Assembly (NCBI GenBank): GCA_046483495.1
Contig: JAWODC010000088.1
Span: 1 to 64,000, forward strand
Source of the DNA: Desulfobacterales bacterium
GTDB lineage: Bacteria > Desulfobacterota > Desulfobacteria > Desulfobacterales > UBA5616
Direction of reading: 5' to 3'
DNA length: 64,000 nucleotides
Both the position numbers and the translations under genes were made by a program. This document shows positions 20,455 to 56,156 of the stretch, piece after piece (position 1 is the stretch's first letter; each line of letters opens with the position of its first letter). The notes below the pieces were generated by a model that was given only the letters and a program-made list of their open reading frames with translations, made no database searches and was not told where the DNA came from.

Positions 20455-20508
20455 TTCGTCTAACGCATTTCGTATTTTTATAAATTTTCAATTACTAGGG
20501 AGGATACC

Positions 20509-21147
20509 ATGTCAGAAGATTTTGGTAAGATGGCGGAATTGTTGATATCCGGAAAAGTTGATGCGGTCGCTGAAATGACACAGAATTTTATTGATTCCGG
20601 TGCAGATGCCAAAGAGGTGATGGACAAAGGTTTGATTGCCGGTATGGATGTTGTCGGCCAGCGCTTTAAAACCGGCGAGATGTTTATCCCCGAAGTTCTG
20701 CGGTCGGCAAAAGCAATGAGCGCCGGGATGGAAAAGCTCCGCCCGATTTTGGCAGAAGGCGACGCCAAGATGGCGGGTACGCTTATCATTGGAACGGTAA
20801 AAGGGGATCTGCACGATATCGGTAAAAATCTGGTTGCCATGATGTTTGAAGGTGCGGGTTTTAAAGTTGTTAATCTCGGAATCGATTTGGAACCCGATGC
20901 CTTTGTCAATGCGGTCAAGGAACACAAACCGGATCTGTTGGGAATGTCCGCCCTGTTGACCACTACCATGCCGAAGATGGGTGAAACGATCAACGCACTG
21001 AAGGAAGCGGGGATTCGTGACCAGGTAAAGATTATGATAGGCGGCGCACCCGTTACGGATGAATTCGCAAAAGAAATCGGAGCGGATATTTACGGCGCCA
21101 ATGCCGCCAGCTCCGTCGATAAAGGCAAAGAAGCGTTAGGCCTCTAA
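20509..21147 (+). CDS. Methyltransferase cognate corrinoid protein (MttC/MtgC-like)
   Basis: B12 cap 'EMFIPEVL' plus 'GDLHDIGKNLV', 'MSALLTTT', 'IGGAPV'. Confidence 0.95.
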   Translation: MSEDFGKMAELLISGKVDAVAEMTQNFIDSGADAKEVMDKGLIAGMDVVGQRFKTGEMFIPEVLRSAKAMSAGMEKLRPILAEGDAKMAGTLIIGTVKGDLHDIGKNLVAMMFEGAGFKVVNLGIDLEPDAFVNAVKEHKPDLLGMSALLTTTMPKMGETINALKEAGIRDQVKIMIGGAPVTDEFAKEIGADIYGANAASSVDKGKEALGL

Positions 21148-21305
21148 TCGCAGCATCTGCAGTATACATGCCGTGTTGATCTATACCCCGGCAGCATCGC
21201 CCCGTTGCATTCGGATGAAGTGCTGCCATAAGTGTCGATAGCGATAACAGGCAAACGTTTTGCATCCGTTAACTAAAAAAAATCCGAAGGGATAGGAGAT
21301 ATGCA

Positions 21306-22784: not shown

Positions 22785-22838
22785 AAGAAAAGGTGACCTT
22801 TTGCGGAATGGTTTTCAGCATAGAGCAAGGAGACAGCT

Positions 22839-24305: not shown

Positions 24306-24402
24306 CCAGGCATTTAGAAGGATGAAGGACGAATCGACTTTTCCGGTAAAAGAAAGTAGATACAAAGTGGGCATTCACCTTCATTCTTCTCCCGATCATA
24401 AC

Positions 24403-26451
24403 ATGTATGCAAAAGCACAGAACATAACCGGCCGTTTTCAAAAATCATCTCTTTCCGATGATTTGTCCGGAAATTTTGTTGTGGGCATAGACACGGGAGG
24501 CACCTACACCGACGGCGTGCTCATGGATTATCAGACCCGACACGTGATCGCCTCGGGCAAGACGCTGACGACGCGTGGGAATCTGGAAAACGGCGTTATC
24601 GCTGTTTTAAAAAAGTTGAAGATAAAAGATCCCTCCGGAATAAAGCTGGTCGGCATTTCCAGCACGCTTTCGACCAATTCCATTGCCGAAGGCAAGGCCA
24701 GGGAGGTCGGGTTGATTCTGATTGGATATGACCCCGACCTGATCGAATCTTTCCGTCTGGATGCCAATTTTAACACGGCCCACATCGCTTACTTTAAAGG
24801 AGGGCATACATCCCAGGGAGATGAAAAAGAGCCCCTGGATATCGACGCTGTCAAGACGTGGGTAAACCGGTACAAGGACACGGTGGACGCATTTGCCGTT
24901 TCAAGTTACTTCAGCCCCTTAAATTCCTCCCATGAAGAAACCGTATTCCATCTGATCGAAAAATGCTGCGACCTCCCCGTGGTTTTGGGTCATCAGTTGT
25001 CTACGAAACTGGATTCGGTCAAGCGGGCATCCACTGCCTGTTTGAATGCCTCCTTGGTCGCGGTGATGCAGGAATTTATCCTCGCGGTTCAAAAAGCACT
25101 GATCAATCGAAAGATCCGGGCTCCTTTAATGATCGTAAAGGGCGATGGATCGCTGATGCCGCATTCGGAAGCGATTGAAAAACCGGTGGAAACCATCCTG
25201 TCGGGTCCGGCAGCCAGTGCCATGGGAGGCCTTTTCCTTTCCGGAACCGCCGATGCCTTGATGATCGATATCGGCGGCACGACCACGGATATGGCGTTTA
25301 TCAGGAATTCACAAATTATTATATCCGATGAAGGCCCCCGTGTGGGAAATATTGAAACGGCTGTGAAGGCCGCTCGAATTCGTACCATTTGTGTAGGATG
25401 TGACAGCCGGATTCGTATTGACCAGTGGAACACGACACAAGTAGGCCCGGATCGGGTGGTGCCTTTGTCACGGCTGGCATCATACTATCCTTCGGTTCGG
25501 GATAATATCACCGCGCTGGCCAACAGAAATCGGAATACCTGGACCGGCAACGACATTGTCTACTGGTTTCTGAATGAACGGGCTAAACATGAAGGGATAC
25601 CATGTGAAAACCCAAAACACGAAACCGTAATCCGTTTGTTAAAAAAAGGCCCTGTGAGTATGGCACATCTTTTGGCGTCCGTCGGCGTCTATCATGCGGT
25701 CCAGCTGAACGCAGACGACTTGTTGCGCCAGGGCGTGATCGAAGAATCCACACTGACGCCTACAGATTTGCTTCACGCGAACGGAAAGCTGGACAAGTGG
25801 GATGCACAAGTTGCCCGACAGGCCGTGGATTGCGCATGCACGGTTTATGGAAAAGACAAAAAGGTATTTGTCGAAGAAACCCTCGAATCAATTATCGCAT
25901 CGATTGTTGAAGAAGCTATCGTGTTTCTGGCCCGGCAGACGGACGGCCATTTGCCTGAAAACCTTGACGGGGAATGGTCCCGTTGGCTCCTCAACGAGGC
26001 AATCAACGGACGAAACGGTTCGTTATCCGTGAATATCGCCGGCCGTTTTCCGATCATCGGCATCGGCGCGCCCGCAGGTATTTTTATTGAAAAAGTGGCA
26101 AGAGCCCTTAAAGCGCCGTTCATCCTACCGGATCATGCGCACGCTGCGAATGCCGCCGGAGCCGTTGCCGGATCCGTGATCAGTGAAAAGGAGGCCCTGA
26201 TTTATATCAGGGAACGCGGTGATACCCGCACGTATATCGTACAAATAGACGCTTGCCGAACGCATTTTCCCGAATACGGAAAAGCAGCGCAATTTGCAAG
26301 GCAACAGGTCGCCGGAACCGCCCGGGAACGGGCGACTACGGCCGGCGCCGCATCTCCTCTGGTTCATGTGACAACCATGACCGAAGGGTCTGTGGAACGT
26401 ATCAAGGCACGGGCCGTCGGCAACCCGAAACTGCTTGGAACCGTAGATTAA
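24403..26451 (+). CDS. Hydantoinase/oxoprolinase-family (ASKHA-fold) protein
   Basis: 'GIDTGGTYTD', 'STLSTNS', 'ETILSGPAAS', 'IDIGGTTTD', 'TPTDLLH', 'ANAAGA'; start uncertain (24322 or 24403). Confidence 0.88.
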   Translation: MYAKAQNITGRFQKSSLSDDLSGNFVVGIDTGGTYTDGVLMDYQTRHVIASGKTLTTRGNLENGVIAVLKKLKIKDPSGIKLVGISSTLSTNSIAEGKAREVGLILIGYDPDLIESFRLDANFNTAHIAYFKGGHTSQGDEKEPLDIDAVKTWVNRYKDTVDAFAVSSYFSPLNSSHEETVFHLIEKCCDLPVVLGHQLSTKLDSVKRASTACLNASLVAVMQEFILAVQKALINRKIRAPLMIVKGDGSLMPHSEAIEKPVETILSGPAASAMGGLFLSGTADALMIDIGGTTTDMAFIRNSQIIISDEGPRVGNIETAVKAARIRTICVGCDSRIRIDQWNTTQVGPDRVVPLSRLASYYPSVRDNITALANRNRNTWTGNDIVYWFLNERAKHEGIPCENPKHETVIRLLKKGPVSMAHLLASVGVYHAVQLNADDLLRQGVIEESTLTPTDLLHANGKLDKWDAQVARQAVDCACTVYGKDKKVFVEETLESIIASIVEEAIVFLARQTDGHLPENLDGEWSRWLLNEAINGRNGSLSVNIAGRFPIIGIGAPAGIFIEKVARALKAPFILPDHAHAANAAGAVAGSVISEKEALIYIRERGDTRTYIVQIDACRTHFPEYGKAAQFARQQVAGTARERATTAGAASPLVHVTTMTEGSVERIKARAVGNPKLLGTVD

Positions 26452-26510
26452 AAGACGTCCTGTGTATGTGAATCCATCTGCAATCGGGTTACGGAAAAAG
26501 GACATGAGGT

Positions 26511-26972
26511 ATGCAACAGCCACTCGAAGAAAAAATTGCAGCATGCTTGAAAGAAACCGACACAGCCTATGAAACAGTAAAACATCAGCCGGTTTATACG
26601 AATCCGGATATGGCAAAAGCCTTAAAAGTAAAGGAATCCGAAACCGTTAAATCGCTGGTATTGAATACGAAAGAAAATGAGATCATTGTGATGGTGATGC
26701 CCGGAGATAAAAAGGCAAACTGGAAACGCATTGCAGCAGCGGCCGATTCAAAAAAAGTGTCCTTTGCCGAACCTGATGCGGTCAAACAACACATCGGCTG
26801 TGAAGTCGGCTGTGTTCCGCCGTTCGGGCATCTGACCCCGATTCGAATCTTTATGGACAGAGCGTTGATGCGAAATCCTTACGTTTATTTCAACCCCGGC
26901 GTGCACGATAAGTCCTTTAAAATCGCCTCGAAGGATCTTGAAAATTTGTGCCGCCCGATTTTTGTGGAGTAA
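26511..26972 (+). CDS. YbaK/EbsC (aminoacyl-tRNA deacylase) family protein
   Basis: 'VKSLVL' Lys motif, 'GCEVGCVPPFG', 'FNPG'. Confidence 0.85.
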   Translation: MQQPLEEKIAACLKETDTAYETVKHQPVYTNPDMAKALKVKESETVKSLVLNTKENEIIVMVMPGDKKANWKRIAAAADSKKVSFAEPDAVKQHIGCEVGCVPPFGHLTPIRIFMDRALMRNPYVYFNPGVHDKSFKIASKDLENLCRPIFVE

Positions 26973-27037
26973 ACCGCGCCGTCCAACCGGCGGTTTGCGG
27001 AAAAATATTCAAACATTTTCAAAAAAAGAGATCTCAG

Positions 27038-28801
27038 ATGGCAAAGCTCACCATATTCCCGATCGAAAAATCCATATATACGAGACGTAAAGAAACCGTC
27101 AGGGAGGCACTGAATCGCATAGGAGTCGACTTCGAGACCCCGTGCAATGGACAGGGGATCTGTGGAAAATGCATTGTTCGGGTGTCGCCCGCCGATGATG
27201 CACCGGAGACGCCGCATCCGGACATTTCTGAACAGCAGGCTCGAGAAGGGCTGCGGCTGGCATGCCGTCTCGTTCCGCAAAAGGATCTCAACGTATACTT
27301 ATTGTCTGACGATCTCGGGGATGATCATCGCATTCTAACGGGAGCCCGTTATCGTGATGATGATGTAAATGCCCGACATGGATCACATAAACGTAATTTT
27401 TTGCATTCAAAACCCGTCATTGGCATTAAAACCCATCCTGCAGGGCGGGTGGCTGAAAAAAACGGAAAATTTGTTTTTACATACGACGGCATACACCGTG
27501 AAATCGTCATGTCCTGGATGGAAGGGACGTCTGAAAAAGGCCTTGCGATAGACATCGGAACGACGACGTTGGTGGTATCCCTGGTGACGTTGAAAGAGTT
27601 TCGAAAATTATCCACGGCATCCAGCTTAAATCCGCAGATTAAATACGGCCATGATGTCATCAGTCGTATACAGATGGGGTCTACAGAAGAGGGGCTCAAA
27701 GCATTATCCGATATGATCCATGAGGCTCTCAACCTTCTTATCGAAGAGGTGTGTGAAAACGCCGGATCACATCCTCAAGAGATTATCGATGTGGTGATCG
27801 GCGGAAATACCACCATGCTTCAGATTGCTGCAGGAATTGATCCCGCGCCGTTAGGGCGGGTTCCGTTTACAGTCGGAATCGAAGGCGGGCGGACCTATTC
27901 GGCAAAACGCTTCAGGTTAAATGTCAACCCGGTTGCACGTGCGTATGTGCCGCCGGTGGCACATGCCTTCATCGGCGCGGACATCAGTGCCGGACTCCTT
28001 GTTCCCAAGGGTTTTTTCGAATCAGGACGGAATATGTTATTCATCGATATCGGAACCAATGGCGAAATGGGCCTTAGTGTTGACAACCGGTGGTTCGTCA
28101 CATCCACCGCCGCCGGACCCGCGTTCGAAGGAATGGGGGTATCCGGCGGCATGCGCGCCCAAATCGGCGCAGTGGAAGCGGCAAAATTAAAGAATACGTC
28201 AATTACAATCCAAACCATCGGAAATGCGCCTCCAATTGGTATTTGCGGCAGCGGCATCATTGACATCACGGCGGTGCTTTTGAAAGCAGGTGTGATCGAT
28301 GCTTCCGGTCGCATGAGACGGCCGCATGAAAAGGACGAGTTACTTATAGGGCTTTCTGAAAGACTGGTTGAGATCGACAACAAGGCTGCATTTCGAATCG
28401 GCAACGATATCTATTTCACCCAGGAAGATGTCCGGCAGGTGCAACTGGCAAAAAGCGCCATATCTTCGGGTATCGATATTCTCCTGGAAGAAGCCGGAAT
28501 CGAGCCCGATCAGTTGGACCGAATTATTATTGCGGGCGGATTCGGTTTCTCATTGAATCCGGACTCGCTCGAAGCCATCGGCCTGATACCTTCGGGGACG
28601 GGGCCAAAGGTTTATTTTGCCGGAAATACCTGCCTTATCGGATGTGTGCGTCTGTTAAGGAATATCGAATATCGGCGATTTATAGAAAAACAGATGAACC
28701 GGGTATCCCATCTTCCTATAGAATCCCGGCCGGATTTTATGGACAGGTATGTTGAAAATATGGAATTTAAAGCAACGCCGCCTCTGGCATCGGTTGCATA
28801 G
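27038..28801 (+). CDS. Reductive activator of corrinoid proteins (RACo/RamA-like; 2Fe-2S + ASKHA ATPase)
   Basis: 'CNGQGICGKC', 'RLAC', 'AIDIGTTT', 'IDIGTNGE', 'AAGPAFEG', 'GICGSG', 'AGGFG'. Confidence 0.93.
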   Translation: MAKLTIFPIEKSIYTRRKETVREALNRIGVDFETPCNGQGICGKCIVRVSPADDAPETPHPDISEQQAREGLRLACRLVPQKDLNVYLLSDDLGDDHRILTGARYRDDDVNARHGSHKRNFLHSKPVIGIKTHPAGRVAEKNGKFVFTYDGIHREIVMSWMEGTSEKGLAIDIGTTTLVVSLVTLKEFRKLSTASSLNPQIKYGHDVISRIQMGSTEEGLKALSDMIHEALNLLIEEVCENAGSHPQEIIDVVIGGNTTMLQIAAGIDPAPLGRVPFTVGIEGGRTYSAKRFRLNVNPVARAYVPPVAHAFIGADISAGLLVPKGFFESGRNMLFIDIGTNGEMGLSVDNRWFVTSTAAGPAFEGMGVSGGMRAQIGAVEAAKLKNTSITIQTIGNAPPIGICGSGIIDITAVLLKAGVIDASGRMRRPHEKDELLIGLSERLVEIDNKAAFRIGNDIYFTQEDVRQVQLAKSAISSGIDILLEEAGIEPDQLDRIIIAGGFGFSLNPDSLEAIGLIPSGTGPKVYFAGNTCLIGCVRLLRNIEYRRFIEKQMNRVSHLPIESRPDFMDRYVENMEFKATPPLASVA

Positions 28802-28901
28802 CACATCAAAAGAGCTTTAAAAGAGCGGGGTCTGGTTCGGACCAGTTGAGCGGGCCGAATTCTGAAATAGAGCGAAAAAGGGGTTTTCAAAACACCAGGG
28901 A

Positions 28902-29633
28902 ATGGCCGGTTTCTGTATGGAACATGAAAGCAATGAAAAAATTTATCTGCCGAATAAGAACAATCGCAAGCGGGTGGTCATTGCCTGCCGGGTTATGCAG
29001 CGGGAGCTTAATGCGGCAAAAGAAAAGCTCACGCAAACCATTGAAATACGATATCTGAACCAGAATCTGCACCGTACGCCGGATAAAATGCCCGGGGTTA
29101 TTCAGGCGGAAATCGATGCGGTCGCCGATTGTGCGTCGGATATCGTATTGGGCTATGGTTTATGCTCCAACGGAATCGTAGGCGTGTATGCCCCCGCACA
29201 GCCATTGTACGTTCCCAGAGCGCATGATTGTGTTGCTCTGCTGATGGGTTCACGAAAATCCTATGAAAAAGCATTTCGTGAAAACCCCGGGACGTATTAT
29301 TTGTCTCCCGGCTGGATTCTGGAAGAAAAAGATCCCTTGGGGATAATGGAAACGGAATATGCACCCAGAATGGGAAAAAAGGAGGCAGAGTGGGGTATTC
29401 GTGAGGAGCTGAAGCACTATTCCAGAATTGTACTGATCGATACCGGGGTTATGCCACCTGCTTATTTGCAGGAACGTGCCCGTGAAAACGCCCGCTTTCT
29501 GAAAAAGGATTATGGTGAGATAAGCGGCGATCCGATTTTTTTTAAAAAACTCCTTAACGGCCCATACCATCCGGAGGAATTTTTCTGTTATGAGCCGGGC
29601 GAACGGATAAAGCAGCAACCTTTTTTGAAATAA
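28902..29633 (+). CDS. DUF1638 domain protein
   Basis: 'IAC', 'LHRTP', 'LGYGLCSNG', 'PRAHDC', 'GTYYLSPGW'. Confidence 0.87.
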   Translation: MAGFCMEHESNEKIYLPNKNNRKRVVIACRVMQRELNAAKEKLTQTIEIRYLNQNLHRTPDKMPGVIQAEIDAVADCASDIVLGYGLCSNGIVGVYAPAQPLYVPRAHDCVALLMGSRKSYEKAFRENPGTYYLSPGWILEEKDPLGIMETEYAPRMGKKEAEWGIREELKHYSRIVLIDTGVMPPAYLQERARENARFLKKDYGEISGDPIFFKKLLNGPYHPEEFFCYEPGERIKQQPFLK

Positions 29634-29656
29634 ATTTCAAAAGGAGACGGACTCTC

Positions 29657-30451
29657 ATGATCATTGTCGGAGAATTAATCAACTCAAGCCGAAAACAGAT
29701 AAAAGAAGCCATCGAAGTTCAGGACGCCGATACAATCAAAGGCATTGCATCGGACCAGTACGCCAATGGGGCCGATTTCATCGATGTAAACGCGGGCACA
29801 TTCATCGGAAAAGAAGCCGAGTACATGAAATGGCTGGTCACGCGCATTCAGGAGGCCGTGGATGCGCCCTGTTGCATTGACAGCCCTGATCCTGCAGTCA
29901 TTGAGGCCGCCTTGAAAGTGCATAAGGGTACGTCCATGATCAATTCCATTTCCTTGGAAAAAGAACGATGCGATGCGCTTCTGCCGATTTTGGCGGGAAC
30001 GGACTTAAACGTAATCGCGCTTTGCATGAGCGATGAAGGAATGCCGGAAACCAGGCAGGACCGAATAGCCATTGCCGAAAAATTGATCAATAAACTTGTC
30101 AAGAATAACATTGCCCTTGAAAATATCTATGTGGACCCTCTGGTTCAACCGGTTTCTACGAATGATGCATACGGAAAAGAATTTTTAAATGCCGTAGAAG
30201 CCGTGATGAGCGGTTTTCCGGGCGTTCACACCATTTGCGGTCTTTCAAATATTTCCTACGGACTGCCGTTACGAAAACGGATCAATCAAACATTTGTGGT
30301 AATGGCCATTGCAAAAGGGCTGGATGGAGCAATCGTAAACCCCCTGGACAGGCAGATGATGGCAAACATAATCACAGCTGAAATGCTGGCGGCAAAAGAT
30401 GAGTTCTGCATGGCCTATTTAACGGCCTATCGCAATAAAAAGTTCGAATAA
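29657..30451 (+). CDS. Methyltetrahydrofolate:corrinoid methyltransferase (AcsE/MtgA-like pterin-binding)
   Basis: 'IVGELINSSRK', 'IDVNAG', 'CIDS', 'INSIS', 'VDPLV', 'GLSNISYGLP'. Confidence 0.92.
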   Translation: MIIVGELINSSRKQIKEAIEVQDADTIKGIASDQYANGADFIDVNAGTFIGKEAEYMKWLVTRIQEAVDAPCCIDSPDPAVIEAALKVHKGTSMINSISLEKERCDALLPILAGTDLNVIALCMSDEGMPETRQDRIAIAEKLINKLVKNNIALENIYVDPLVQPVSTNDAYGKEFLNAVEAVMSGFPGVHTICGLSNISYGLPLRKRINQTFVVMAIAKGLDGAIVNPLDRQMMANIITAEMLAAKDEFCMAYLTAYRNKKFE

Positions 30452-44201: not shown

Positions 44202-44561
44202 ATGCATATCGTCCATACGAAAGAAGTGCCAAAAAGTCCTCTAAAAGCCCCGCTCTTTACCGGAAATGATGTCAGTATTCAGCCCTTGATCCCCGAGGGT
44301 GGAGACTATAACATGAACATCGTAAACTTTGGGAGAGGCGTCAGAAATAAATTCCATGTGCATGAAAGTGACCAAATTTTGATCGTCACGGCCGGAAAGG
44401 GAATCGTGGCCACGGAGCAGGAGCAAAAGGAAGTTGCCGTAGGCGATATCATCCTGTTTCCCAAGGGTGAAAAGCACTGGCATGGAGCGACCGAAAATTC
44501 CGAATTTTCCCATATATACATAACAATGGCCGGTACCGATACCACTCAAATGGAAGATTAA
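44202..44561 (+). CDS. Cupin domain protein
   Basis: 'FHVHESDQIL', 'GDII.FP.GEKHWHGA'. Confidence 0.9.
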   Translation: MHIVHTKEVPKSPLKAPLFTGNDVSIQPLIPEGGDYNMNIVNFGRGVRNKFHVHESDQILIVTAGKGIVATEQEQKEVAVGDIILFPKGEKHWHGATENSEFSHIYITMAGTDTTQMED

Positions 44562-44630
44562 CGATAAGTCAGACAAATCAGGAAAAAAAGAAAGAATAAA
44601 ACCACGTTCGAAGCAACTTGGGAGGCTCTT

Positions 44631-45023
44631 ATGATTACAGAGGCAAAACCCGACGTAAAATATTTATCTTCCGAACAAATGAAAGGCCTGCCTTTTTCTG
44701 AAGCAGTACGGGTCGGACATATGCTATATCTATCCGGCATGATCGGAATGGATAGTACCAGGAAATTACGTTCAGGCGGAATTACGGCGGAGACGCGGCA
44801 AGTGATGGAAAACATGAAAGACACTCTTAAACGGCATGGTTCTTCGCTTGAGCATGTCATTAAAGTCACGGTAATGTTGGCTGATATGAATGAGTGGGCA
44901 GAAATGAACAAGATCTATGTGACCTATTTTCCTAAGAACCTGCCCGCTCGGAGCGCCCTGGGAGCCAATGGACTGGCCCTTGGTGCGCGAGTGGAAATCG
45001 AGTGCATTGCTGTCGTAAAATAG
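44631..45023 (+). CDS. RidA-family (YjgF/UK114) protein
   Basis: 'PFSEAV', 'LYLSG', 'PARS', 'VEIEC'. Confidence 0.92.
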   Translation: MITEAKPDVKYLSSEQMKGLPFSEAVRVGHMLYLSGMIGMDSTRKLRSGGITAETRQVMENMKDTLKRHGSSLEHVIKVTVMLADMNEWAEMNKIYVTYFPKNLPARSALGANGLALGARVEIECIAVVK

Positions 45024-45096
45024 AATTAAACTTGTCTTAATATGGTAGTTGGGATCGGATGGCTTGAACTTCTAAAAAAAATCTTGAGAGATAACA

Positions 45097-45681
45097 ATGA
45101 GCAAAATCAAGCTGGGAAAGAGAAATCTTCTTCTTCCCTATTTACCTGTTTTAGTGGGTACAAACGTCGGAGGCAAACCGAACTACATTACCATCGCCCT
45201 GGTCGGCTGGTTATGCTATGATGCAATATCCGTTTCTGTAGGCCGCGATCAGTATTCAAATGCAGGCATAAGAGAAAACAGAACGTTCAGCATTAACCAA
45301 CCTTCAGCCGAGATGGTGAAAGAGCTCGATTACTGCGGATTGTACAGCGGCAGAAAAGTGGATAAATCAGCGCTGTTTGAAAACTTCTACGGGGGGCTCG
45401 AAACCGCTCCCATGATTAAACAATGTCCTGTAAATATTGAATGCCGAGTAGTTCAAACAATAGAACGGCCGGTTCACACGATATTCATTGGAGAAGTGGC
45501 CGAAGTCTACTTTGATGAAGATTGCATGACAGGTGGTGTTCCTGACGTGTCCAAGGTCGATCCGATTTTTTTCGGTCCTGTCAAAGGCCGAACAGAGCTT
45601 GCCGGCTGTTATTATAAAATGGGGGACTATCTGGCACCCGCATGGAACGTAGGAAAAGAGCTAAAAGGCTCAAAAAAATGA
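45097..45681 (+). CDS. Flavin reductase-like (flavoredoxin) protein
   Basis: 'GKPNYIT', 'DYCGLYSG', 'APMIKQCPVNIEC', 'HTIFIGEV'. Confidence 0.88.
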   Translation: MSKIKLGKRNLLLPYLPVLVGTNVGGKPNYITIALVGWLCYDAISVSVGRDQYSNAGIRENRTFSINQPSAEMVKELDYCGLYSGRKVDKSALFENFYGGLETAPMIKQCPVNIECRVVQTIERPVHTIFIGEVAEVYFDEDCMTGGVPDVSKVDPIFFGPVKGRTELAGCYYKMGDYLAPAWNVGKELKGSKK

Positions 45682-45713
45682 GACGGGGTGCTCCGTTAGT
45701 GATTTTTCAGCAT

Positions 45714-45859
45714 TACAAGCTATCTCAAAATAAATATTTTGGTTCAAGATCAAGGCGGAACCGCATGTTAAGCCGCAGGCATACTCATGTATGTTGAGGA
45801 CTTAACATGCTGTTCCAACAAAGATATTGGGGCAAAAGATTATTTTGAGATAGCTTGTA
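45714..45859. repeat. 146-bp palindromic element with a perfect 20-bp terminal inverted repeat
   Basis: TACAAGCTATCTCAAAATAA...TTATTTTGAGATAGCTTGTA; internal TCAAGGCGG, CCGCAGGCATAC/GTATGTTGAGGA and CCAAC landmarks as in the other copies. Confidence 0.85.
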
Positions 45860-45895
45860 TCCTTTTTTCAATCATCTTCTGCAGGAGAAGCCCGA

Positions 45896-46843
45896 ATGAT
45901 CATCGACAGTCATGTGCATTTGTTTTATGAGAATTCCGATCCCGAGTCCTGGTTTATCGGTTCGGCAAGAGCGGGATTAGCCGCTCTGAATCGGATTACC
46001 GGCGAAAGAGCCGATCCATTCGAGTTCTACACCCAAATCGCCCCCCTTTTGTATGACAGAAACGGGGATAGGCTGGTGGGATGGATGGACGAGGCAGGGA
46101 TCGATCGGGCCGTTCTTCTGCCGATCGATCTGCGACTGCTGGCGGACGAACCTTCGACATCGGAATTTCATTTTCCCTCCATTCAAGAGAAAAACAATAC
46201 CTATTTCGAGGCGGTTCGTCGGCACAAAGGACGGCTCTTTTCATGCGCCGGGGTGGATCCCCGGAGGAAAAACGCGGTCGAATTGTTTCGGAAAGGTGTG
46301 GAAAAGTGGGGTATGATTGGGATAAAGCTTCATCCCACCGCCGGATATTATCCTCATGATTCCACCTGTTATCCGATATACGAGGCGGCCAGGGAATTCA
46401 ATGTGCCGGTAATCATCCACTCAGGAAGTGAACCGGCGCCGCTGAAGTGTCACTATTCCCAACCCAAATACATCGATGCGGTGGCCGCCGATTTTCCCGA
46501 GGTCATCTTTGTCATCGCCCACTGCGGGCACGGGTGGTACAAGGAGGCGGTGGACCTGGCTACCATGAAACCCAACATCTACTGTGATTTTTCCGGGTGG
46601 CAGGTAGAGTACCTCACCGGTGCAGACTATTTCTTCGGGCCGCTGCGCTACGCCCTCGACTTCCTCGGTCCATGGCGGGTGATGTTCGGCACGGATGGTC
46701 CGGCATACACCATGTTTATGAGCAACAAGAACTGGGTGGAAGTGGTCCGCAGCGCCGAGTCCCCTTCGGGAATCCAATTTTCCAGGGAGGAGATGGACAT
46801 TTTTCTGGGCGGTGCCGCTGCTCGACTGTATGGGTGGGATTGA
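45896..46843 (+). CDS. Amidohydrolase_2 family metal-dependent hydrolase/decarboxylase
   Basis: 'IIDSHVH', 'GIKLHP', 'IHSG', 'AHCG', 'MFGTDGP'. Confidence 0.9.
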   Translation: MIIDSHVHLFYENSDPESWFIGSARAGLAALNRITGERADPFEFYTQIAPLLYDRNGDRLVGWMDEAGIDRAVLLPIDLRLLADEPSTSEFHFPSIQEKNNTYFEAVRRHKGRLFSCAGVDPRRKNAVELFRKGVEKWGMIGIKLHPTAGYYPHDSTCYPIYEAAREFNVPVIIHSGSEPAPLKCHYSQPKYIDAVAADFPEVIFVIAHCGHGWYKEAVDLATMKPNIYCDFSGWQVEYLTGADYFFGPLRYALDFLGPWRVMFGTDGPAYTMFMSNKNWVEVVRSAESPSGIQFSREEMDIFLGGAAARLYGWD

Positions 46844-47539: not shown

Positions 47540-49051
47540 TCAAGAAAGAAGTCTTTTTAACAGCTTGCCTGTGGGGGTTCGCGGCAGTTCATCGACGAAT
47601 TCAATCGATGTGGGGCATTTGATTTTTGACAATCTGCTTCTGCAATATGTGATGAGTTCTATTTCCATTTCGGGTCCGGCCTCGGAAGGTTCATTCAGCT
47701 GGACAACACCTTTGGGTGTTTCCCCAAAATCTTCATGCGGTACTCCGATAACGGCCACATCCAATACTTTTGGGTGCGTGATGAGAACGTTTTCAGCTTC
47801 TTGGGGATAGATATTCACGCCGCCTGAAATGATCATATTGCTTTTGCGGTCTGTCAGGTAAAGGTAGCCTTCTTCATCAACATAGCCTACATCGTTTATG
47901 GTTGACCACCCCTGCGAGGTGTGTGCTGATGCTGTTTTTTGGGGGTCGTTGTGATATTCAAAGGATTGACCGTCGGCAAAATAGATCGTTCCGATTTTCC
48001 CGGCGGGCATTTCATTTAAATCGTCGTCAAGAATTTTAATAGTGCCCAATATCGCTTTTCCCACGGATCCCTTGTTTTGCAGCCACTCTTCCGATTTAAT
48101 GACAGTCAAGCCGTTCATTTCAGATCCGGTATAGTACTCGAATAATATTGGTCCCCACCAGGCGATCATTTTTTCTTTGATCGCGATTGGAATCGGTGCA
48201 GCCGAATGGATGGCGACCCGGTGAGAAGACAGATCATATCCGCTTCTATCCTCATGGGACAATTTCAGCATTCTGATGAACATGGTGGGCACCCATTGGC
48301 TGTGGGTCACCTTGTATTTATCCAGAATTTCAATCGCCGCCAAAGCATCGAATTTTTCCATAATAACGACCGTGGCGCCGACGTTGATGCATATGATGAC
48401 AAACCGGAGAGGTCCTGCGTGGTATAAAGGGGCGGGAGACAGATAAACGGCGTCTTCGTTGATGTCAAATAAGCTGGTAACAAGATCGGCAGCCGGCGAC
48501 ATTTCACCGAATGCCAGATCCGGGAGGTTCACCTTGATTCCCTTGGGGCGCCCCGTTGTGCCGGAAGAATAGACCATGTCCTTGCCCGTCTTTTCATCAG
48601 GGATGGGTTCTGCGGGATAGGATGCGATTACGTCGTCATAAGATGTATAATTGTCTTGGCAGCCGCCAATCATGAAGCGGGCGTTTAGCGAAGGGGGCGG
48701 ATGCAGCTCATCTGCCAAATCCCTTTTCGCCCATGAGGTGAAGAGTACTCTGGCCCCGCAATCATTGAGAATATATTCGATCTCGGAAGGATTGAGATGA
48801 ATGCTGATGGGCGTATATATGAGACCGGAACGGTCGGCGGCCATGCAGATCTCGATAAAGCGCGGATGGTTTTCCATCAGTATGGCGATGGTGTCGCCAT
48901 AACGGAGCCCCAGATCCCTGAACAAATGGGCACATCGATTGGCCCCGGATTCGAGCGCGCTGCTGGTGATTGTTTCGCCGGACGAGCCCATGATGACAGA
49001 GGGCTTGTCAGGCATTTCCAAAGCCAGCTGTCGGGCTTTAAACAGAGCCAT
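47540..49051 (-). CDS. AMP-forming acyl-CoA synthetase
   Basis: 'YSSGTTGRPKG', 'APLYH', 'EYYTGSE', 'DRKSNMIISGGVNIYPQE', 'LPRTPTGK'. Confidence 0.93.
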   Translation of the reverse strand: MALFKARQLALEMPDKPSVIMGSSGETITSSALESGANRCAHLFRDLGLRYGDTIAILMENHPRFIEICMAADRSGLIYTPISIHLNPSEIEYILNDCGARVLFTSWAKRDLADELHPPPSLNARFMIGGCQDNYTSYDDVIASYPAEPIPDEKTGKDMVYSSGTTGRPKGIKVNLPDLAFGEMSPAADLVTSLFDINEDAVYLSPAPLYHAGPLRFVIICINVGATVVIMEKFDALAAIEILDKYKVTHSQWVPTMFIRMLKLSHEDRSGYDLSSHRVAIHSAAPIPIAIKEKMIAWWGPILFEYYTGSEMNGLTVIKSEEWLQNKGSVGKAILGTIKILDDDLNEMPAGKIGTIYFADGQSFEYHNDPQKTASAHTSQGWSTINDVGYVDEEGYLYLTDRKSNMIISGGVNIYPQEAENVLITHPKVLDVAVIGVPHEDFGETPKGVVQLNEPSEAGPEMEIELITYCRSRLSKIKCPTSIEFVDELPRTPTGKLLKRLLS

Positions 49052-49080: not shown

Positions 49081-49461
49081 TTATACCAGCGCCATCAGCC
49101 GTTCCTGAAGGGATTCCAGCTTGTCAAACGGATGAAATACCTCTCTTACACCGAGTCCGCGAATATACAATTCGTCCTTTTCCGACACAATGCCCCCGAC
49201 GACCACGGGAATATTCGGGATATTATGCTTATCCAGCTCTTTAAACAGTATTTCCATAACCACCCGTGGCGATGCATCCATCAGCCTGCAGCCGATGATA
49301 TCGACATCCTCCTGGATAGCGGTTCTGACAATTTCTTTGGGTGTTTGGATGCCCCCCAAAACGACCTCGAAACCTGCATTGGAAAGGGCCTTTGCGACGA
49401 CGTGGTAGCCCCTGGCATGATACCAGTCGTCTCGACTCAGCAGCATTTTAGGCTTTTTCAT
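49081..49461 (-). CDS. Cobalamin-binding small subunit of an acyl-CoA mutase (IcmB/HcmB-like), atypical motif
   Basis: 'HARG...AL..AGFEV', 'QTP.EIV..AIQEDVD.IG', 'VVVGGIV'; GGGAGG RBS. Confidence 0.85.
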   Translation of the reverse strand: MKKPKMLLSRDDWYHARGYHVVAKALSNAGFEVVLGGIQTPKEIVRTAIQEDVDIIGCRLMDASPRVVMEILFKELDKHNIPNIPVVVGGIVSEKDELYIRGLGVREVFHPFDKLESLQERLMALV

Positions 49462-49477
49462 GATGATTGAACCTCCC

Positions 49478-51163
49478 TTATGAAAGTATATCCGGTGGCG
49501 AGCAGACATAAGGCCCTTCAGGAGGGCGGCTGAAGATTTCAGATATGATTGATGCATACTCAGCCCTTGTCAGGCCGGAACGGGCAGCCGCAATCAGGGA
49601 GGGAATCATGTTATCCCCGTTTTGAATGGCGTCAAAGAGGCGTTGGCGGGCGGCGTCAAGCTTTTTAGCATCGCGTTCGGCCCTAACCTTCTTGAGACGG
49701 GCAATCTGCTTGTCCGCAGCCTCCGCCGAGTATTCCGTCAGCACCTCGAAATCGGCATGTTTTTGAAGGACCCGCAGCGCCTGCATCTGGACGTCCTCTT
49801 CTTCTACATATATATTTACGCCGACCAATTTCCTCTCTCCCGAGTCGAACTCCATCTGGTTCTGGTATGCTGCACGCCTGATTTCATTTTGCATCCAACT
49901 TCTCGCTTTTGTCGCACCGCCGCGTTTTTGGACCTCATCAATAAGGGCGAGCGCCTGTTTCTCAAGCGCTTTGGTGAGCCATTCCACGTAATAGGAGCCG
50001 CCCAGCGGGTCGATGACCTTTGTCACCCCCGTTTCATGGTCAATGATTTGCTGGGTGCGGACGGATAAAGAGGCTGAAAACTCGGTGGGCAGGGCCAGGG
50101 CTTCGTCAAAAGAATTGACATGCATCGACTGAACTCCGCCAAGAATTGCCCCCATGGCATACAGGGTTCCCCGAATCAGGTTGTTAAACGGTTGCTGCTT
50201 GGTCATGGTGGGGGCATAGATCTGGCAATGCATTCGGCATCTGAGGGACTTCGGATTTCGGGCATCGTATTTTTCCTTGAAAATTTTTGCCCATACTTTG
50301 CGCAGCGCGCGGAACTTGGCCGCCTCTTCGAAAATCTCGGGCCCTGCATTGACAAACCACGCCACGCGGTGCAGGAAGTCATCAATTTTCAGGCCGCGCC
50401 GGATCAGGGCGTCGGCTGTGTCCATGGTGGTGGCGACCCCGAAGGCGATTTCCTGGGCGGCGGTGCAACCCCCTTCCCGTGTATTGCGCATATCCAGATA
50501 TCCCGAATTGAAAAGCGGCATGTTGTTCGTGCAAAATTCGATGATGTCGATGCACTCAGCGTCATTTCGCAGGCCGTTGGACATGCTGCCGCGGAGTCTT
50601 TCAAGGTCGATTCCCCTGGATTGCGCAATGGAAATATAGCAGGCCAATGCATAGGGAGACATGGTGATGAGGTGCACAGGATATTTCATCATGTCGATGT
50701 CTTCAAACAGCGTTTCGAAGTCGTATAATGTATCCAGTGCCACTCCCCCGGCTCCGACCAGTCCCCTGACTCTTTCATCGTCGCTGTCGGCCCGGTATCC
50801 CAAGCCGTCGTCAGGAACAACCGAGAGGGCGGTTGCCCCCTTCGAGAGGAGAAACTTCCACCGCTTGTTGGTCTCCTCTGCTGTGCCGAAACCGGTCACC
50901 TGACGGATATTCGGCCGCCGAGACAGAAATCCTGCTGGAAAGGTTCCTCGGGTGTAAGGGTGCTGTCCTGGAAATGAGATATCGTCGGAATAGTCGATGT
51001 CATGAATATCCGATGGTGTATAAATCGGTTTAACCGGCATTCCTGAGAAGGTAACGTATTGCGCTTCAGCTCCGGGGATTTTTTCCATGATCTGACGCAG
51101 CTCTTCCTCATACTTTTCCCGGGCAACGGCAATTTCATCAAGCGTTTCTTGAGTAAAAAGCAT
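49478..51163 (-). CDS. Acyl-CoA mutase large (substrate-binding) subunit, methylmalonyl-CoA mutase family, divergent active site
   Basis: 'PG.HPYTRG', 'IRQVTGFG', 'FEEAAKFRALR', 'LGGVQSMHVNSFDEALALPT', 'RTQQII', 'DPLGGSYYVE'; no fused B12 domain. Confidence 0.92.
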   Translation of the reverse strand: MLFTQETLDEIAVAREKYEEELRQIMEKIPGAEAQYVTFSGMPVKPIYTPSDIHDIDYSDDISFPGQHPYTRGTFPAGFLSRRPNIRQVTGFGTAEETNKRWKFLLSKGATALSVVPDDGLGYRADSDDERVRGLVGAGGVALDTLYDFETLFEDIDMMKYPVHLITMSPYALACYISIAQSRGIDLERLRGSMSNGLRNDAECIDIIEFCTNNMPLFNSGYLDMRNTREGGCTAAQEIAFGVATTMDTADALIRRGLKIDDFLHRVAWFVNAGPEIFEEAAKFRALRKVWAKIFKEKYDARNPKSLRCRMHCQIYAPTMTKQQPFNNLIRGTLYAMGAILGGVQSMHVNSFDEALALPTEFSASLSVRTQQIIDHETGVTKVIDPLGGSYYVEWLTKALEKQALALIDEVQKRGGATKARSWMQNEIRRAAYQNQMEFDSGERKLVGVNIYVEEEDVQMQALRVLQKHADFEVLTEYSAEAADKQIARLKKVRAERDAKKLDAARQRLFDAIQNGDNMIPSLIAAARSGLTRAEYASIISEIFSRPPEGPYVCSPPDILS

Positions 51164-51245: not shown

Positions 51246-51671
51246 TTACCAATCATTCTGCCTTGAGTTCTGCAATAGGAGAGTAAGCCGCTCGATTTCA
51301 GATTCCAGCAGGTAAATATGATCCTTCAAATCTTTCATTTTTTGATACGCAGAGGTTAGGTTCGTTTGGATAATTTCTTTGGCGCGGAGAATCATCTGAT
51401 CCTCATTTTCAGGATTTTGGTGCCGGATACCCGCCAATTCTTTTAATTCTTTCAGTGAAAATCCCAAACGTTTTGCGCGCCGGATCATTTTCGTGCCGTT
51501 AAGGTGATTTTCTGTGTAAGTACGGTAGCCGTTCGTGTTTCTGTGCGGAGGTGGGAGGAGGCCGACTTCTTCATAGTAACGGATTGTGCGTGTGGTCACG
51601 CCGGCTTTTTTTGCCAACTCACCAATCGTCATGGAAGTGAATTCATGTTGGGGCAGTTTTCTTGTTTTCAT
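51246..51671 (-). CDS. MerR-family transcriptional regulator (LiuR-like)
   Basis: 'MTIGELAKKAGVTTRTIRYYEEVGLL', 'RAKRLGFSLKE'; no Cys in the C-terminal domain; start uncertain. Confidence 0.9.
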   Translation of the reverse strand: MKTRKLPQHEFTSMTIGELAKKAGVTTRTIRYYEEVGLLPPPHRNTNGYRTYTENHLNGTKMIRRAKRLGFSLKELKELAGIRHQNPENEDQMILRAKEIIQTNLTSAYQKMKDLKDHIYLLESEIERLTLLLQNSRQNDW

Positions 51672-53501: not shown

Positions 53502-53773
53502 ACATTTGATAAAAATTCATTTACAGGATTGAACAATAATTTTCCGAAAATGGAGCATTAACATAACGGTTTTGTATAGAATACCGATACAATAAGTCAG
53601 TTCGGATTTGATTTTACATGCTTAAAAAAAATGAAAAAATCATGAAAATCTTGATATCCCGGGATTTCCGGTTTATTGGATATACTAACATAAAAGCATC
53701 GTACGTTTACATTGGCATATAAACGTATTCTCATTTATTCAATTCATTCGTTAAGACATTAGAGGAGAAAGTG

Positions 53774-54973
53774 ATGAGTGAGCTAGATGTGTTTCGAAAA
53801 ACCGTTCGAACATGGCTTGAGGAAAACGCGCCTGAATCGTTAAGAGGTAAGGCGGGTGACTTTAAAGATGGTTATTGGGGCGGGAAGAAAACGCCGCTGC
53901 CTTTCCCCGATTCCAGATCATGGGCGGACATGATGGCGAAGAAAGGATGGACGGTTCCCATGTGGCCCAAGGAATACGGTGGGGGCGGACTATCCAAAAA
54001 GGAAAATAAGATTTTAATCGAAGAACTGGATCGGTTGAAATTGCCACTTCCCCTGGTCGGATTTGGTATTACCATGATAGGGCCCACGATTCTTCAATTT
54101 GGGACGGAAGAGCAAAAACAGTTTTTTCTTCCGAAGATCTGCAGTGGTGAAATAAGGTGGTGCCAGGGGTACTCCGAGCCGAATGCAGGTTCGGATCTGG
54201 CCAACGTCCAGACCATGATGGTGGACGATGGAGACGGGTTTATCATCAACGGCCAGAAAGTCTGGACCAGCTACGGTGATCTGGCAGACTGGATTTTCAT
54301 GATCGGTCGCACGGATTGGGACGTCAAAAAGCAGGCCGGCATCACATTCATCCTGGTGGATATGGATCAGCCCGGCGTGAAAGTTAGACCGATAGAATTG
54401 ATCAGTGGAGAAAGCCCCTTTTGCGAAGTGTTTTTCGATAACGTCAAAGCATCGAAAAAACATGTACTGGGTGAGTTAAACAACGGATGGGGAGTAGCCA
54501 AGGCTCTTCTGGGTCACGAACGGACAATGATCGCAGATGTTTTTGGAACCGGCAGACCCCCGGCCGATCAGGCGTTAACGCCGGAAGGCGCAGCCGCCCA
54601 TTATATCGGGATGAAAGACGGCCGGGTTGCCGATCCCTCTATACGGGACCGTATGGCCCAGACCCAGATGGATGAAATCTGTTTCAATTTAACGGTTCAA
54701 AGGAATGCGGACAATATGAAGGCGGGGCACAATCCCGGCCCGGAATCGTCCATGTTCAAGGTCTATGGTACCGAGCTTAACCAGCGGCGCCTGGAACTGT
54801 TGGTTTCGATTATGGGACCGGAAGCTCTGGGTTGGGAAGGGGACGGATTTACCAAGCATGAGCTGAAACTGACACGAGAATGGCTGAGATCCCGTGGAAA
54901 TACGATTGAAGGCGGCACCTCCGAAATTCAATTGAACGTTATCTCCAAAATGGTATTGGGGCTTCCGAAATAA
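53774..54973 (+). CDS. Acyl-CoA dehydrogenase, large subunit of a PimC/PimD-like pair
   Basis: 'WCQGYSEPNAGSDLA', 'INGQKVWTS', 'LGHER', 'TIEGGTSEIQ'. Confidence 0.92.
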   Translation: MSELDVFRKTVRTWLEENAPESLRGKAGDFKDGYWGGKKTPLPFPDSRSWADMMAKKGWTVPMWPKEYGGGGLSKKENKILIEELDRLKLPLPLVGFGITMIGPTILQFGTEEQKQFFLPKICSGEIRWCQGYSEPNAGSDLANVQTMMVDDGDGFIINGQKVWTSYGDLADWIFMIGRTDWDVKKQAGITFILVDMDQPGVKVRPIELISGESPFCEVFFDNVKASKKHVLGELNNGWGVAKALLGHERTMIADVFGTGRPPADQALTPEGAAAHYIGMKDGRVADPSIRDRMAQTQMDEICFNLTVQRNADNMKAGHNPGPESSMFKVYGTELNQRRLELLVSIMGPEALGWEGDGFTKHELKLTREWLRSRGNTIEGGTSEIQLNVISKMVLGLPK

Positions 54974-54998
54974 GCAGACACGACTCAGGAGAAAATTT

Positions 54999-56156
54999 AT
55001 GGAACTTTTACTGACAGATGAACAGAGAATGCTGGATCAATCGGCCCGGAATTTTATAAAAAAAGCCTCCCCGGTCACACGGATGCGCGAACTCAGGGAT
55101 GATACGGAATCGCTTGCATACGACAAAAAGGTTTTTCAACAGATGGCCAAACTGGATTGGACTGCAATCCTGCTCCCCGAAGATCAGGGTGGGATGGGAA
55201 TGGGCATGGCCGATATGATCGTGGTAATGGAAGCCATCGGCACAGGCCTGGCGCCGGAACCCCTTTTACCCTCGGTTATACTTGCAGGGCAGGCGCTGAC
55301 GTTAAGCGGTAACGACGCGCTGATAGACGAATGGCTCGATCCAATTATTGAAGCGAAAAAAGTTCTGGCTTTGGCATATCAGGAAAAGCAGGGGCGTTTT
55401 GATTTTACACGAGTGGCAGCCACTGCCGAAAAAACAGATGCCGAAAAAACAGATGGAGGATATACGCTGAATGGCGAGAAAACCCAAGTGCAGGCAGGTT
55501 GGGGTGCTGATGCCGTCATTGTCTCAGCCAGAACCTCAGGCCGGAGCGGCGATGCAGACGGCATAACGCTTTTTCTCGTCCCCAGCAACACGCCGGGCCT
55601 GACCTTTACCCGACAACACCGGGTGGATTCCCGAAACTGTGCCATCGTCCGGCTTGAAAACGTCAAGATTCCGGAATCCAGTATTGTGGGGGAAGTAGAT
55701 AGAGGCGGAGAGATTCTAAACACGGTGATTGACATGGCCACCATCGCCCTTTGCGGAGAAATGCTGGGCGGCATAACCGCCGTTTTTGAGCGCACCATGG
55801 CTTATCTGAAAACACGCGAGCAATTTGACGTCGTTATCGGGTCATTTCAGGCGCTTCAACACCGTGCAGCCAAGATGTTTATGGAGATCGAACTTGCGCG
55901 TTCAGCGGTTATGGCGGCAGCACGGGCGTTTGATGAAAAGGATGCCGGGGCAGCCGCCTTGATATCGGTAGCCAAAGCCCGCTGTTCCGACGCATATGTC
56001 CTGATAACCAACGAGGGCGTGCAGATGCACGGAGGAATCGGCATGACCGACGAGGAGGATGTCGGTTTATATATGAAACATGCCCGCGTAACGGAAATGA
56101 CGTTTGGGGACGCCGCTTATCACAGGGATCGATTTGCCTCGATTAAAGGTTATTGA
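54999..56156 (+). CDS. Acyl-CoA dehydrogenase, small subunit of a PimC/PimD-like pair
   Basis: 'YLKTREQF.V.IGSFQALQHRAA', 'QMHGGIGMT.E', 'FGD'. Confidence 0.92.
   Translation: MELLLTDEQRMLDQSARNFIKKASPVTRMRELRDDTESLAYDKKVFQQMAKLDWTAILLPEDQGGMGMGMADMIVVMEAIGTGLAPEPLLPSVILAGQALTLSGNDALIDEWLDPIIEAKKVLALAYQEKQGRFDFTRVAATAEKTDAEKTDGGYTLNGEKTQVQAGWGADAVIVSARTSGRSGDADGITLFLVPSNTPGLTFTRQHRVDSRNCAIVRLENVKIPESSIVGEVDRGGEILNTVIDMATIALCGEMLGGITAVFERTMAYLKTREQFDVVIGSFQALQHRAAKMFMEIELARSAVMAAARAFDEKDAGAAALISVAKARCSDAYVLITNEGVQMHGGIGMTDEEDVGLYMKHARVTEMTFGDAAYHRDRFASIKGY

Follow-up and report, generated by a model that had tools for sequence, protein, structure and literature searches.

An acyl-CoA mutase subfamily with a replaced active-site signature in a Desulfobacterales bacterium and other anaerobes

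Which reaction might a B12-type acyl-coenzyme A (CoA) mutase carry out when residues that serve catalysis and substrate binding in the studied enzymes have been exchanged for others? The question is raised by a gene at positions 49478..51163 of a 64,000-nucleotide stretch of Desulfobacterales DNA, hereafter the window (GenBank assembly GCA_046483495.1, contig JAWODC010000088.1), which a preliminary description had taken for the large subunit of a mutase from a new subfamily. Acyl-CoA mutases are known for no more than a handful of reactions, and each newly found one has exposed a pathway or provided a tool for branched chemicals. Here we describe the encoded protein, the clade to which it belongs, its operon and the reactions that might be assigned to it.

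A full-length mutase large subunit with replaced active-site residues

49478..51163, minus strand: mutase large (substrate-binding) subunit, 561 amino acids (aa) (P0001), ATG at 51163 preceded by GGAGGG

The open reading frame (ORF) encodes a full-length acyl-CoA mutase large subunit. Family PF01642 covers residues 38-544 (E = 9.7e-142, 473.5 bits against a cut-off of 22.1) and the NCBIfam N-terminal-domain model TIGR00641 was passed (450 bits, cut-off 303.8); the equivalog models NF006944, for methylmalonyl-CoA mutase (MCM, EC 5.4.99.2), and NF045497, for the isobutyryl-CoA mutase IcmF, both failed (392 bits against 876 and 167 bits against 1500, respectively). Among solved structures, phmmer ranked HcmA, the large subunit of 2-hydroxyisobutyryl-CoA mutase, first (4r3u_A, E = 4e-110), followed by human MCM (8e-85), Propionibacterium MCM (9e-75) and IcmF (5.5e-37). 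An AlphaFold2 (AF2) model built from 73 aligned relatives, with a mean predicted local distance difference test score (pLDDT) of 91.5 and a predicted template-modeling score (pTM) of 0.92, superposed in Foldseek on 4r3u_A with a template-modeling (TM) score of 0.91 and a root-mean-square deviation of 2.3 Å, and on MCM chains with TM scores of 0.84-0.87. Every residue that is at least 90% conserved over 73 diverse mutases is kept, including R87, N196, K283, R285, R288, N328, Q345, D353 and E354. An ESM Atlas search with the mutase returned only generic mutase clusters.

Within this scaffold the protein carries a signature consisting of V89, V116-P117-D118-D119, G192-S-M-S-N196, R199, D224-M-R226-N227 and H312-C-Q-I-Y-A-P318. 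The strings singled out in the preliminary description, IRQVTGF (containing V89), SVVPDD, GSMSNGLRND (192-201), YLDMRNTREGG (222-232) and HCQIYA, were all present with the same numbering, and alignment to solved structures bore out the replacements read from them by eye: Val89 aligns with Ile of HcmA and Tyr89 of MCM, Ser195 aligns with the Gln of GTxQ (Gln197 in MCM), and Arg226-Asn227 lies beneath the Tyr-His of SGYH (DMRN under SGYH), that is, MCM Tyr243-His244. In addition, Val116 aligns with the Asp of the HcmA string STDFD. In MCM, Tyr89, Arg207, Tyr243 and His244 have catalytic or substrate-binding roles, the Tyr and the Arg-bearing loop binding the carboxylate; in HcmA, Ile90 and Asp117 govern specificity, the Asp binding the hydroxyl group. 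None of the residue pairs of MCM (Tyr, Arg), HcmA (Ile, Asp) or the genome's own IcmF (Phe, Gln) is found in the window protein. The accessible parts of PMC2847961 and PMC7176365 hold no table of mutase residue roles.

The deletion of roughly 15 residues that had been noted at GSMSNGLRND was recovered as well, with 29 residues from G192 to S220 compared to 44 in HcmA, rhizobial ScpA and the genome's own MCM. The accompanying claim, that the deletion removes the loop carrying MCM Arg207, turned out to depend on the aligner. In a profile-profile alignment of 18 members of the clade described below with 11 MCM- and ethylmalonyl-CoA mutase (ECM)-type sequences, R199 lies beneath the Leu of NDIL and the Arg207 segment falls within a 12-residue gap that is followed by a 3-residue gap, whereas phmmer places R199-N200 under the MCM "RN" with Arg207. 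We judge the profile-profile alignment to be the better founded of the two, making loss of the Arg207 loop the better-supported reading of the sequences. In the AF2 model, strand 192-195 leads through a six-residue turn directly into helix 202-214 (pLDDT about 89-94).

Compared with MCM (P. shermanii 1REQ, human MMUT 2XIJ and the copy on contig C18 of the same genome), the window protein thus has the same domain, barrel fold and near-invariant residues at 32-35% identity, but is split into two subunits where MCM is fused, and differs in Tyr89 (Val), Gln197 (Ser), the Arg207 segment (absent) and Tyr243-His244 (Arg-Asn).

The signature is conserved throughout a distinct clade

A search of 5.8 billion proteins yielded at least 120 clusters of relatives with 54-81% identity to the window protein, and all those listed were aligned. 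S195, N196, R226, N227, R229, E230, H312, C313, Q314, A317, P318, N350, D353 and E354 are present in 120 of the 120 listed relatives, all of which also have a loop of 29 residues; D224 and C233 are each present in 119, V89 in 118, R199 in 113 and P200 in 111. The relatives originate from assembled genomes of Desulfobacteraceae, Desulfobacterales, Syntrophaceae, Peptococcaceae, Spirochaetota and others. Constraint was judged by these counts, synonymous sites being saturated at 65-69% protein identity. Because the substitutions are invariant in all 120 relatives across this range of divergence, the signature is best read from the alignment as a set of fixed features under constraint, far beyond chance, and not as the decay of a single sequence; the concern that the substitutions might be peculiar to the window gene is thereby settled, given that the listed relatives share them. 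As to what the residues might do, Val89 and Val116 would argue for a pocket wall less polar than that of MCM or HcmA, and the conserved R199, D224, R226 and N227 for something polar or anionic close to the migrating center. An enlarged pocket and a new substrate or radical chemistry, as suggested in the preliminary description, are conjectures.

The clade is well separated from the characterized mutases. In a library of representatives at 50% identity, it is covered by a single representative (P0069, 847 bits), with the next match at 430 bits and 42% identity. Maximum-likelihood trees of 151 and 158 sequences, in which 12 clade members were sampled and sequences gapped at over 25% of the trimmed columns were left out, recovered the clade with a support of 1.0 and, as its sisters, P0122 and the P0121 group with a joint support of 0.99-1.0, whereas HcmA of Methylibium and Xanthobacter, ScpA of Rhizobium and the genome's own MCM all fell outside. 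The phylogeny therefore upholds a distinct, strongly conserved subfamily that groups with neither MCM nor HcmA and has an uncharacterized sister. The labeled HcmA and ScpA references came from a tblastn search of plasmids, in which no match exceeded 39% identity; a search of genome contigs with the large subunit found only relatives at 34-37% identity. Four clade members (L016, L017, L018 and L027) were among the 80 loci of a metagenome scan, the remaining loci being isobutyryl-CoA mutase (ICM)-, ECM- or 2-hydroxyisobutyryl-CoA mutase (HCM)-like or belonging to the sister clade.

The uniqueness of the signature had been put too high. The Tyr-His pair is kept in only 48 of 140 other representatives and paralogs, so that non-canonical clades are common in the superfamily, and Asn occupies the His position in 19 of the 140. 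What did hold up is the combination of Arg at the Tyr position, otherwise seen in only 3 of the 140, and the short loop, given that only two others have fewer than 42 residues (36 and 37) compared to 29 in the clade; on the available alignments, these two features appear specific to the clade and its nearest relatives.

The sister clade (P0121 type; loci L019, L022, L025, L030 and L033, of high G+C content) shares Val89 (RQVVG), has Arg-Asn or Arg-Asp at the Tyr-His position and a loop likewise shortened, and is accompanied by a small subunit with the same D-x3-H-x2-G and GYR(I/L)M motifs; it differs in its identity to the clade of only 39-46%, in retaining the Gln of GTIQN and in a loop of 37 rather than 29 residues. 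Its neighbors include TetR, acyl-CoA dehydrogenase, crotonase, a second mutase, CoA-transferase and a methylcrotonyl-CoA-carboxylase-like subunit. At one sister locus (L022:2762-10634), a crotonase lies between two different mutases in one operon, the second mutase, of Tyr/Arg type, being followed by a CoA-transferase.

An operon with a B12-binding subunit and an acyl-CoA ligase

The mutase gene is the second in an operon of four genes on the same strand, in the order MerR regulator, large subunit, small B12-binding subunit and acyl-CoA ligase; from the large subunit on, each has a strong Shine-Dalgarno site. The three genes that accompany it are:

51246..51638, minus strand: MerR-family regulator, about 130 aa from the ATG at 51638, frame open to 51818, no cysteine
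49081..49461, minus strand: small B12-binding subunit, 126 aa, start MKKPKMLLSR, GGGAGG before the ATG
47540..49051, minus strand: AMP-forming acyl-CoA ligase, 503 aa, AAGGAGG before the ATG; third gene of the operon when counted from the large subunit

The small subunit begins 16 nt past the stop codon of the large subunit and matches PF02310 (E = 1.5e-13), TIGR00640 (85 bits, cut-off 57) and HcmB (4r3u_C, E = 3.7e-20); the large subunit is immediately followed by an ortholog in all 6 related loci that reach that far. Base-off/His-on B12 binding is marked by the motif DxHxxG ... SxL ... GG. In the window subunit, SRDDWYHARG stands where DxHxxG is expected and GCRLM where SxL is, and in alignment with DGHDRG of P. 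shermanii MCM, His matches His, Trp lies under the Asp and the preceding Lys is matched by Arg. The seven clade small subunits share the form SRDD-x-x-H-x-RG, with the His, the Gly and the GG kept in all seven, Trp, Phe, Pro or Ile at the canonical Asp position, and a conserved Asp at -3 and -4 from the His; the Ser of SxL is Tyr or Cys, the motif there being GYR(I/L)M. Three sister-clade subunits read D-x3-H-x-TG. Judging by these sequences, the cobalt-ligand His is kept and its hydrogen-bond partner would have to come from elsewhere.

The ligase begins 29 nt past the small-subunit stop. It matches PF00501 (E = 5e-61) and PF13193, but scores below every curated cut-off, the best NCBIfam model being FadD4 (614 bits, cut-off 850), and its best solved relatives are FadD5 and FadD13 of M. 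tuberculosis. The MerR gene, which ends 82 nt upstream of the large subunit, matches PF13411 (E = 4.8e-22) and PF00376 and remains under the cut-offs of the metal-sensor models CueR, ZntR and MerR; a possible counterpart is LiuR, according to the accessible part of PMC7238569 a MerR-type regulator of branched-chain acid genes. RNA-library contigs of at least 99% identity from three studies (P2, P3 and P5; the coverage is from runs of P2 and P3) cover parts of the large-subunit, small-subunit and ligase genes, one of them bridging the junction of the small- and large-subunit genes. DNA carry-over is possible in such libraries, and operon stretches that no contig covers are uninformative either way, so that the contigs are compatible with expression of the operon. 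An Rfam scan of the window detected neither a riboswitch nor any other RNA family, and GC content gave no sign of recent transfer.

Gene neighborhoods and the proposed function

We compared nine loci carrying the clade gene: the window, the four metagenomic loci L016, L017, L018 and L027, and L096, L097, L098 and L099 from genomes G165, G242, G395 and G134, respectively. A CoA-activating gene is present in six of the seven loci with usable flanks, as an AMP ligase in the window, L016, L017, L027 and L096, as an ADP-forming-type synthetase in L016, L097 and the window (at 41432), and in L097 as a family III CoA-transferase, nearest to dicarboxylate transferases, directly upstream of the mutase. 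A crotonase gene lies directly upstream in three loci (L017, L096, L099), acyl-CoA dehydrogenases occur in three (window, L016, L096), and FadR-like TetR regulators lie directly upstream in two (L027, L018). Further neighbors are Liv-type ABC or TRAP transporters in L027 and L096, a thiolase of SCP-x type with its zinc-ribbon partner in L016, and a PduO-type adenosyltransferase directly upstream of the mutase in L098. The dehydrogenase that adjoins the small subunit in G165 scores best against butyryl-/short-chain acyl-CoA dehydrogenases (340 bits), ahead of isovaleryl- (278) and glutaryl-CoA dehydrogenases (229).

The most likely reading, which we consider probable on balance, is that the clade is a working corrinoid-dependent acyl-CoA mutase, because the fold and the shared residues are kept, the B12 subunit retains the ligand His, an adenosyltransferase is a neighbor once and the operon includes a ligase. 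Its most likely setting is a catabolic sequence in which an acid is activated, rearranged and degraded by short-chain beta-oxidation, since the neighbors are CoA-activating enzymes, crotonases and acyl-CoA dehydrogenases of short-chain type. Under this scenario, a short organic acid would be imported and converted by the ligase to its CoA ester, the two-subunit mutase would rearrange the carbon skeleton of the ester by adenosylcobalamin radical chemistry, and ordinary beta-oxidation enzymes would then degrade the product. The adenosylcobalamin is expected to be bound through the conserved His and the reaction to be a 1,2-shift of the thioester carbon, with Arg226 and Asn227 possibly taking over the roles of MCM Tyr243 and His244. 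The substrate may be a short acyl-CoA of about C4-C6 whose carbon adjoining the thioester is branched or carries a polar substituent, and we predict that it differs from those of MCM, ICM, ECM, HCM and pivalyl-CoA mutase (PCM).

The isobutyryl- and pivalyl-CoA mutases of the IcmF type (PDB 4XC6 and 5CJW, and the copy on contig C66 of the same genome) offer a precedent for such a setting, as they act on short acyl-CoAs that feed into short-chain beta-oxidation, a route that fits the butyryl-CoA-dehydrogenase-like and crotonase neighbors of the clade. They differ from the window protein in sequence (24% identity in the fold alignment), in having Phe and Gln at the specificity positions, the Tyr-His pair and a fused G-protein, where the window protein has Val89 and no equivalent of the Gln segment.

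Several observations weigh against a working mutase of this kind. The equivalents of MCM Gln197, Tyr243 and His244 are replaced, the Arg207 loop is gone and, in the partner subunit, the Asp of DxHxxG is displaced, so that loss or change of the classical activity is possible. The conserved polar residues R199, D224, R226 and N227 are a poor fit for a plain hydrophobic branched acyl group, and the genome already encodes an IcmF. A gene for MeaB (PF03308) is adjacent to the mutase in none of the nine loci, whereas four of the genome's seven mutase paralogs have an adjacent or fused MeaB. No PduO-type adenosyltransferase was found in the 96.7%-complete genome, a search that did not extend to other transferase types. 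The neighborhoods vary between loci and therefore define a theme rather than a pathway, and the database names of clade members are all generic.

More tentatively, the clade and its sister may together form a branch of B12 mutases with a rebuilt core (Arg-Asn, deletion of the Arg207 loop, D-x3-H-x2-G) that operates free of MeaB and rearranges a CoA ester outside the known reactions, and could thus belong to an unrecognized anaerobic route for a branched or substituted short acid; we regard this as a possibility that falls somewhat short of being probable. The type of enzyme is known; the catalytic residues and the cofactor motif of the branch are new, as its presumed substrate would be. In the literature searched, in which subscription journals were largely absent, no description of the clade was found, and the accessible part of PMC11887813 does not mention mutases. 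The clade is widespread in uncultured anaerobes and strongly constrained, and together with its B12 partner it departs from the studied enzymes at residues that all solved members have in common, and with its substrate named, a gap in anaerobic carbon degradation would be closed and it could be asked to what extent the radical machinery withstands exchange of the Tyr-His pair and of the ligand-motif Asp. Many such unassigned mutase clades exist, and that of the window is one good candidate among them.

Alternative explanations

The alternative that survives best, albeit an unlikely one, is a mutase for pairs of 2-substituted succinyl-CoA and (substituted-methyl)malonyl-CoA, of the ethylmalonyl-CoA mutase, IaaGH or alkylsuccinyl-CoA type, that acts on products of fumarate addition or on bulky dicarboxylic acids. 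The clade-specific conserved R199 and R226 could bind a carboxylate, but the Tyr and the Arg-bearing loop that do so in MCM are both lost. Glycyl radical enzymes occur in four of the five genomes carrying the clade gene, and in L017 a glycyl-radical-enzyme activase (TIGR02494, 352 bits) is encoded three genes upstream of the mutase; the fifth genome, G165, lacks a pyruvate formate-lyase (PFL)-like enzyme at 100% completeness, an activase is nearby only in L017, and the window operon includes neither a glycyl radical enzyme nor a carboxyltransferase or iaa gene. The dicarboxylate-like family III CoA-transferase of L097 and the TRAP DctPQM transporter of L096 are compatible with a dicarboxylic acid, whereas the dehydrogenase of G165 is nearer to butyryl- than to glutaryl-CoA dehydrogenase and a carboxyltransferase or decarboxylase gene is adjacent in none of the nine loci. 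Furthermore, the alkylsuccinate-synthase-like gene cluster of the window's genome has a mutase of its own. A precedent is available in IaaGH, the phenylsuccinyl-/benzylmalonyl-CoA mutase of Aromatoleum aromaticum, which the accessible part of PMC8360864 describes as acting on phenylsuccinyl-CoA and which, like the clade, is a B12 mutase of an anaerobe encoded in a catabolic operon. According to the same paper, the enzymes encoded alongside it are a CoA ligase, a family III CoA-transferase and an acyl-CoA dehydrogenase, the comparison with the clade being by description. None of the nine loci has hydantoinase-like iaa genes next to the mutase; the Hydantoinase_A gene of the window (24196-26451) is 23 kb away in another cluster.

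Less likely still, and in our view improbable, is a variant hydroxyacyl-CoA mutase related to HcmAB that would convert 2-hydroxy-2-methylacyl-CoA and 3-hydroxyacyl-CoA into each other, with substrates that differ in chain length or stereochemistry. By both sequence and fold, the large subunit has HcmA as its closest solved relative, and the small subunit has HcmB by sequence, yet HcmA is only about 41% identical and lies elsewhere in the tree. HcmAB of Aquincola tertiaricarbonis (PDB 4R3U), whose orthologs on the plasmids of Methylibium petroleiphilum PM1 and Xanthobacter autotrophicus Py2 were included in the comparison, likewise consists of two separate subunits of sizes equal to those in the window, and the hcm operon has the same parts, namely, regulator, small subunit, acid-CoA ligase and large subunit; in the window, the large subunit precedes the small one and there is no gene for a MeaB-type GTPase. 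Where HcmA has Ile90, the Asp of STDFD, the Gln of GTVQAD and Tyr-His, the window protein has Val, Val, Ser and Arg-Asn, together with a loop shorter by 15 residues, and the exchange of the hydroxyl-binding Asp for Val, along with that of Ile for Val, speaks against this chemistry; in the small subunits, DxHxxG of HcmB corresponds to DDxxHxxG. Crotonases, which act on 3-hydroxyacyl-CoA and are encoded directly upstream in three of the nine loci, would suit it. The degradation of ketones by sulfate reducers employs a B12 mutase on 2-hydroxyisobutyryl-CoA, as reported in the accessible part of PMC7888143, but the MeaB, dehydrogenase and thiamine enzyme of the Desulfosarcina ketone cluster described there were not seen in the nine loci.

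Finally, an inactive or regulatory paralog, or a protein that uses the corrinoid for different chemistry, is the least probable of all, given that the replacement or loss of the Tyr-His pair, Gln197 and the Arg207 loop, the displaced Asp and replaced Ser in the ligand motifs of the partner and the absence of a MeaB gene from the nine loci are set against the presence of the new residues in 120 of 120 relatives, which indicates a working site rather than decay, retention of the near-invariant residues of the superfamily, an operon with its own conserved B12 subunit and a ligase, and a far poorer match to inactive MCM beta subunits (6oxc_B, 96 bits).

Mutase paralogs of the host genome and distribution of the clade

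The window, contig C33, belongs to an assembly of 4.19 Mb with 96.7% completeness, which encodes seven PF01642 proteins, on contigs C18, C66, C17, C56, C33, C29 and C59. The C18 gene is a canonical MCM with MeaB, C66 holds the fused IcmF, C17 has MeaB, the C56 mutase lies within a cluster, and the mutases of C33, C29 and C59 are without MeaB. The C56 cluster (L103:1338-16745) comprises a glycyl radical enzyme (844 aa), a 137-aa ORF, a mutase large subunit with GYH and the Arg of ARGTY, radical SAM, family III CoA-transferase, carboxyltransferase, AMP ligase, NMO-type protein, crotonase and MeaB, which we take to be the make-up expected of an alkylsuccinate-synthase (fumarate-addition) pathway. 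This cluster suggests that the organism degrades hydrocarbons anaerobically, and its mutase is a better candidate for alkylsuccinyl-CoA rearrangement than that of the window. A second MeaB-less operon with a non-canonical mutase, on contig C29 (L104:275-8932), has the order TetR, large subunit (MQQMVFG, with MYG for GYH), small subunit, crotonase, DUF362, family I CoA-transferase and crotonase. The C59-type gene is solitary in the window's genome, with no adjoining B12 subunit, and a search for this paralog found a close ortholog in G134 only and no rule of co-occurrence; in that genome, at L099 (G134:C323:1-4190), a C59-type large subunit and a canonical small subunit precede the clade gene, with the crotonase between the mutases.

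The clade gene was detected in 5 of 401 sampled genomes of the phylum, the window's own included. Within the order of G165, it occurs in two of seven genomes, and the search there added no carrier. G242 and G395, members of the same phylum (family f55), have 33 and 13 domain matches to PFL-like glycyl radical enzymes, respectively, and, on a first look, 33 and 29 candidate large subunits of mutases, G395 being only 78% complete.

Other genes in the window

Three further gene groups of the window are on the plus strand. At 53771-56156, 2.6 kb from the mutase operon and on the opposite strand to it, two adjacent genes encode acyl-CoA dehydrogenases that score highest against the models for the large and small subunits of pimeloyl-CoA dehydrogenase (283 and 251 bits, both under cut-off). 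A corrinoid methyltransferase system at 19615-30451 comprises a methyltransferase, a corrinoid protein (B12-binding and B12-binding_2), a 492-aa methyltransferase of the MttB family that contains no in-frame stop, a hydantoinase-like protein, a reductive activase of RACo type, DUF1638 and a pterin-binding methyltransferase. It resembles a pathway for demethylating a quaternary amine or similar compound. The genes at 44202-46843, convergent with the ligase gene, encode a cupin, RidA, a flavin reductase and Amidohydro_2, and may form an aromatic-acid module.

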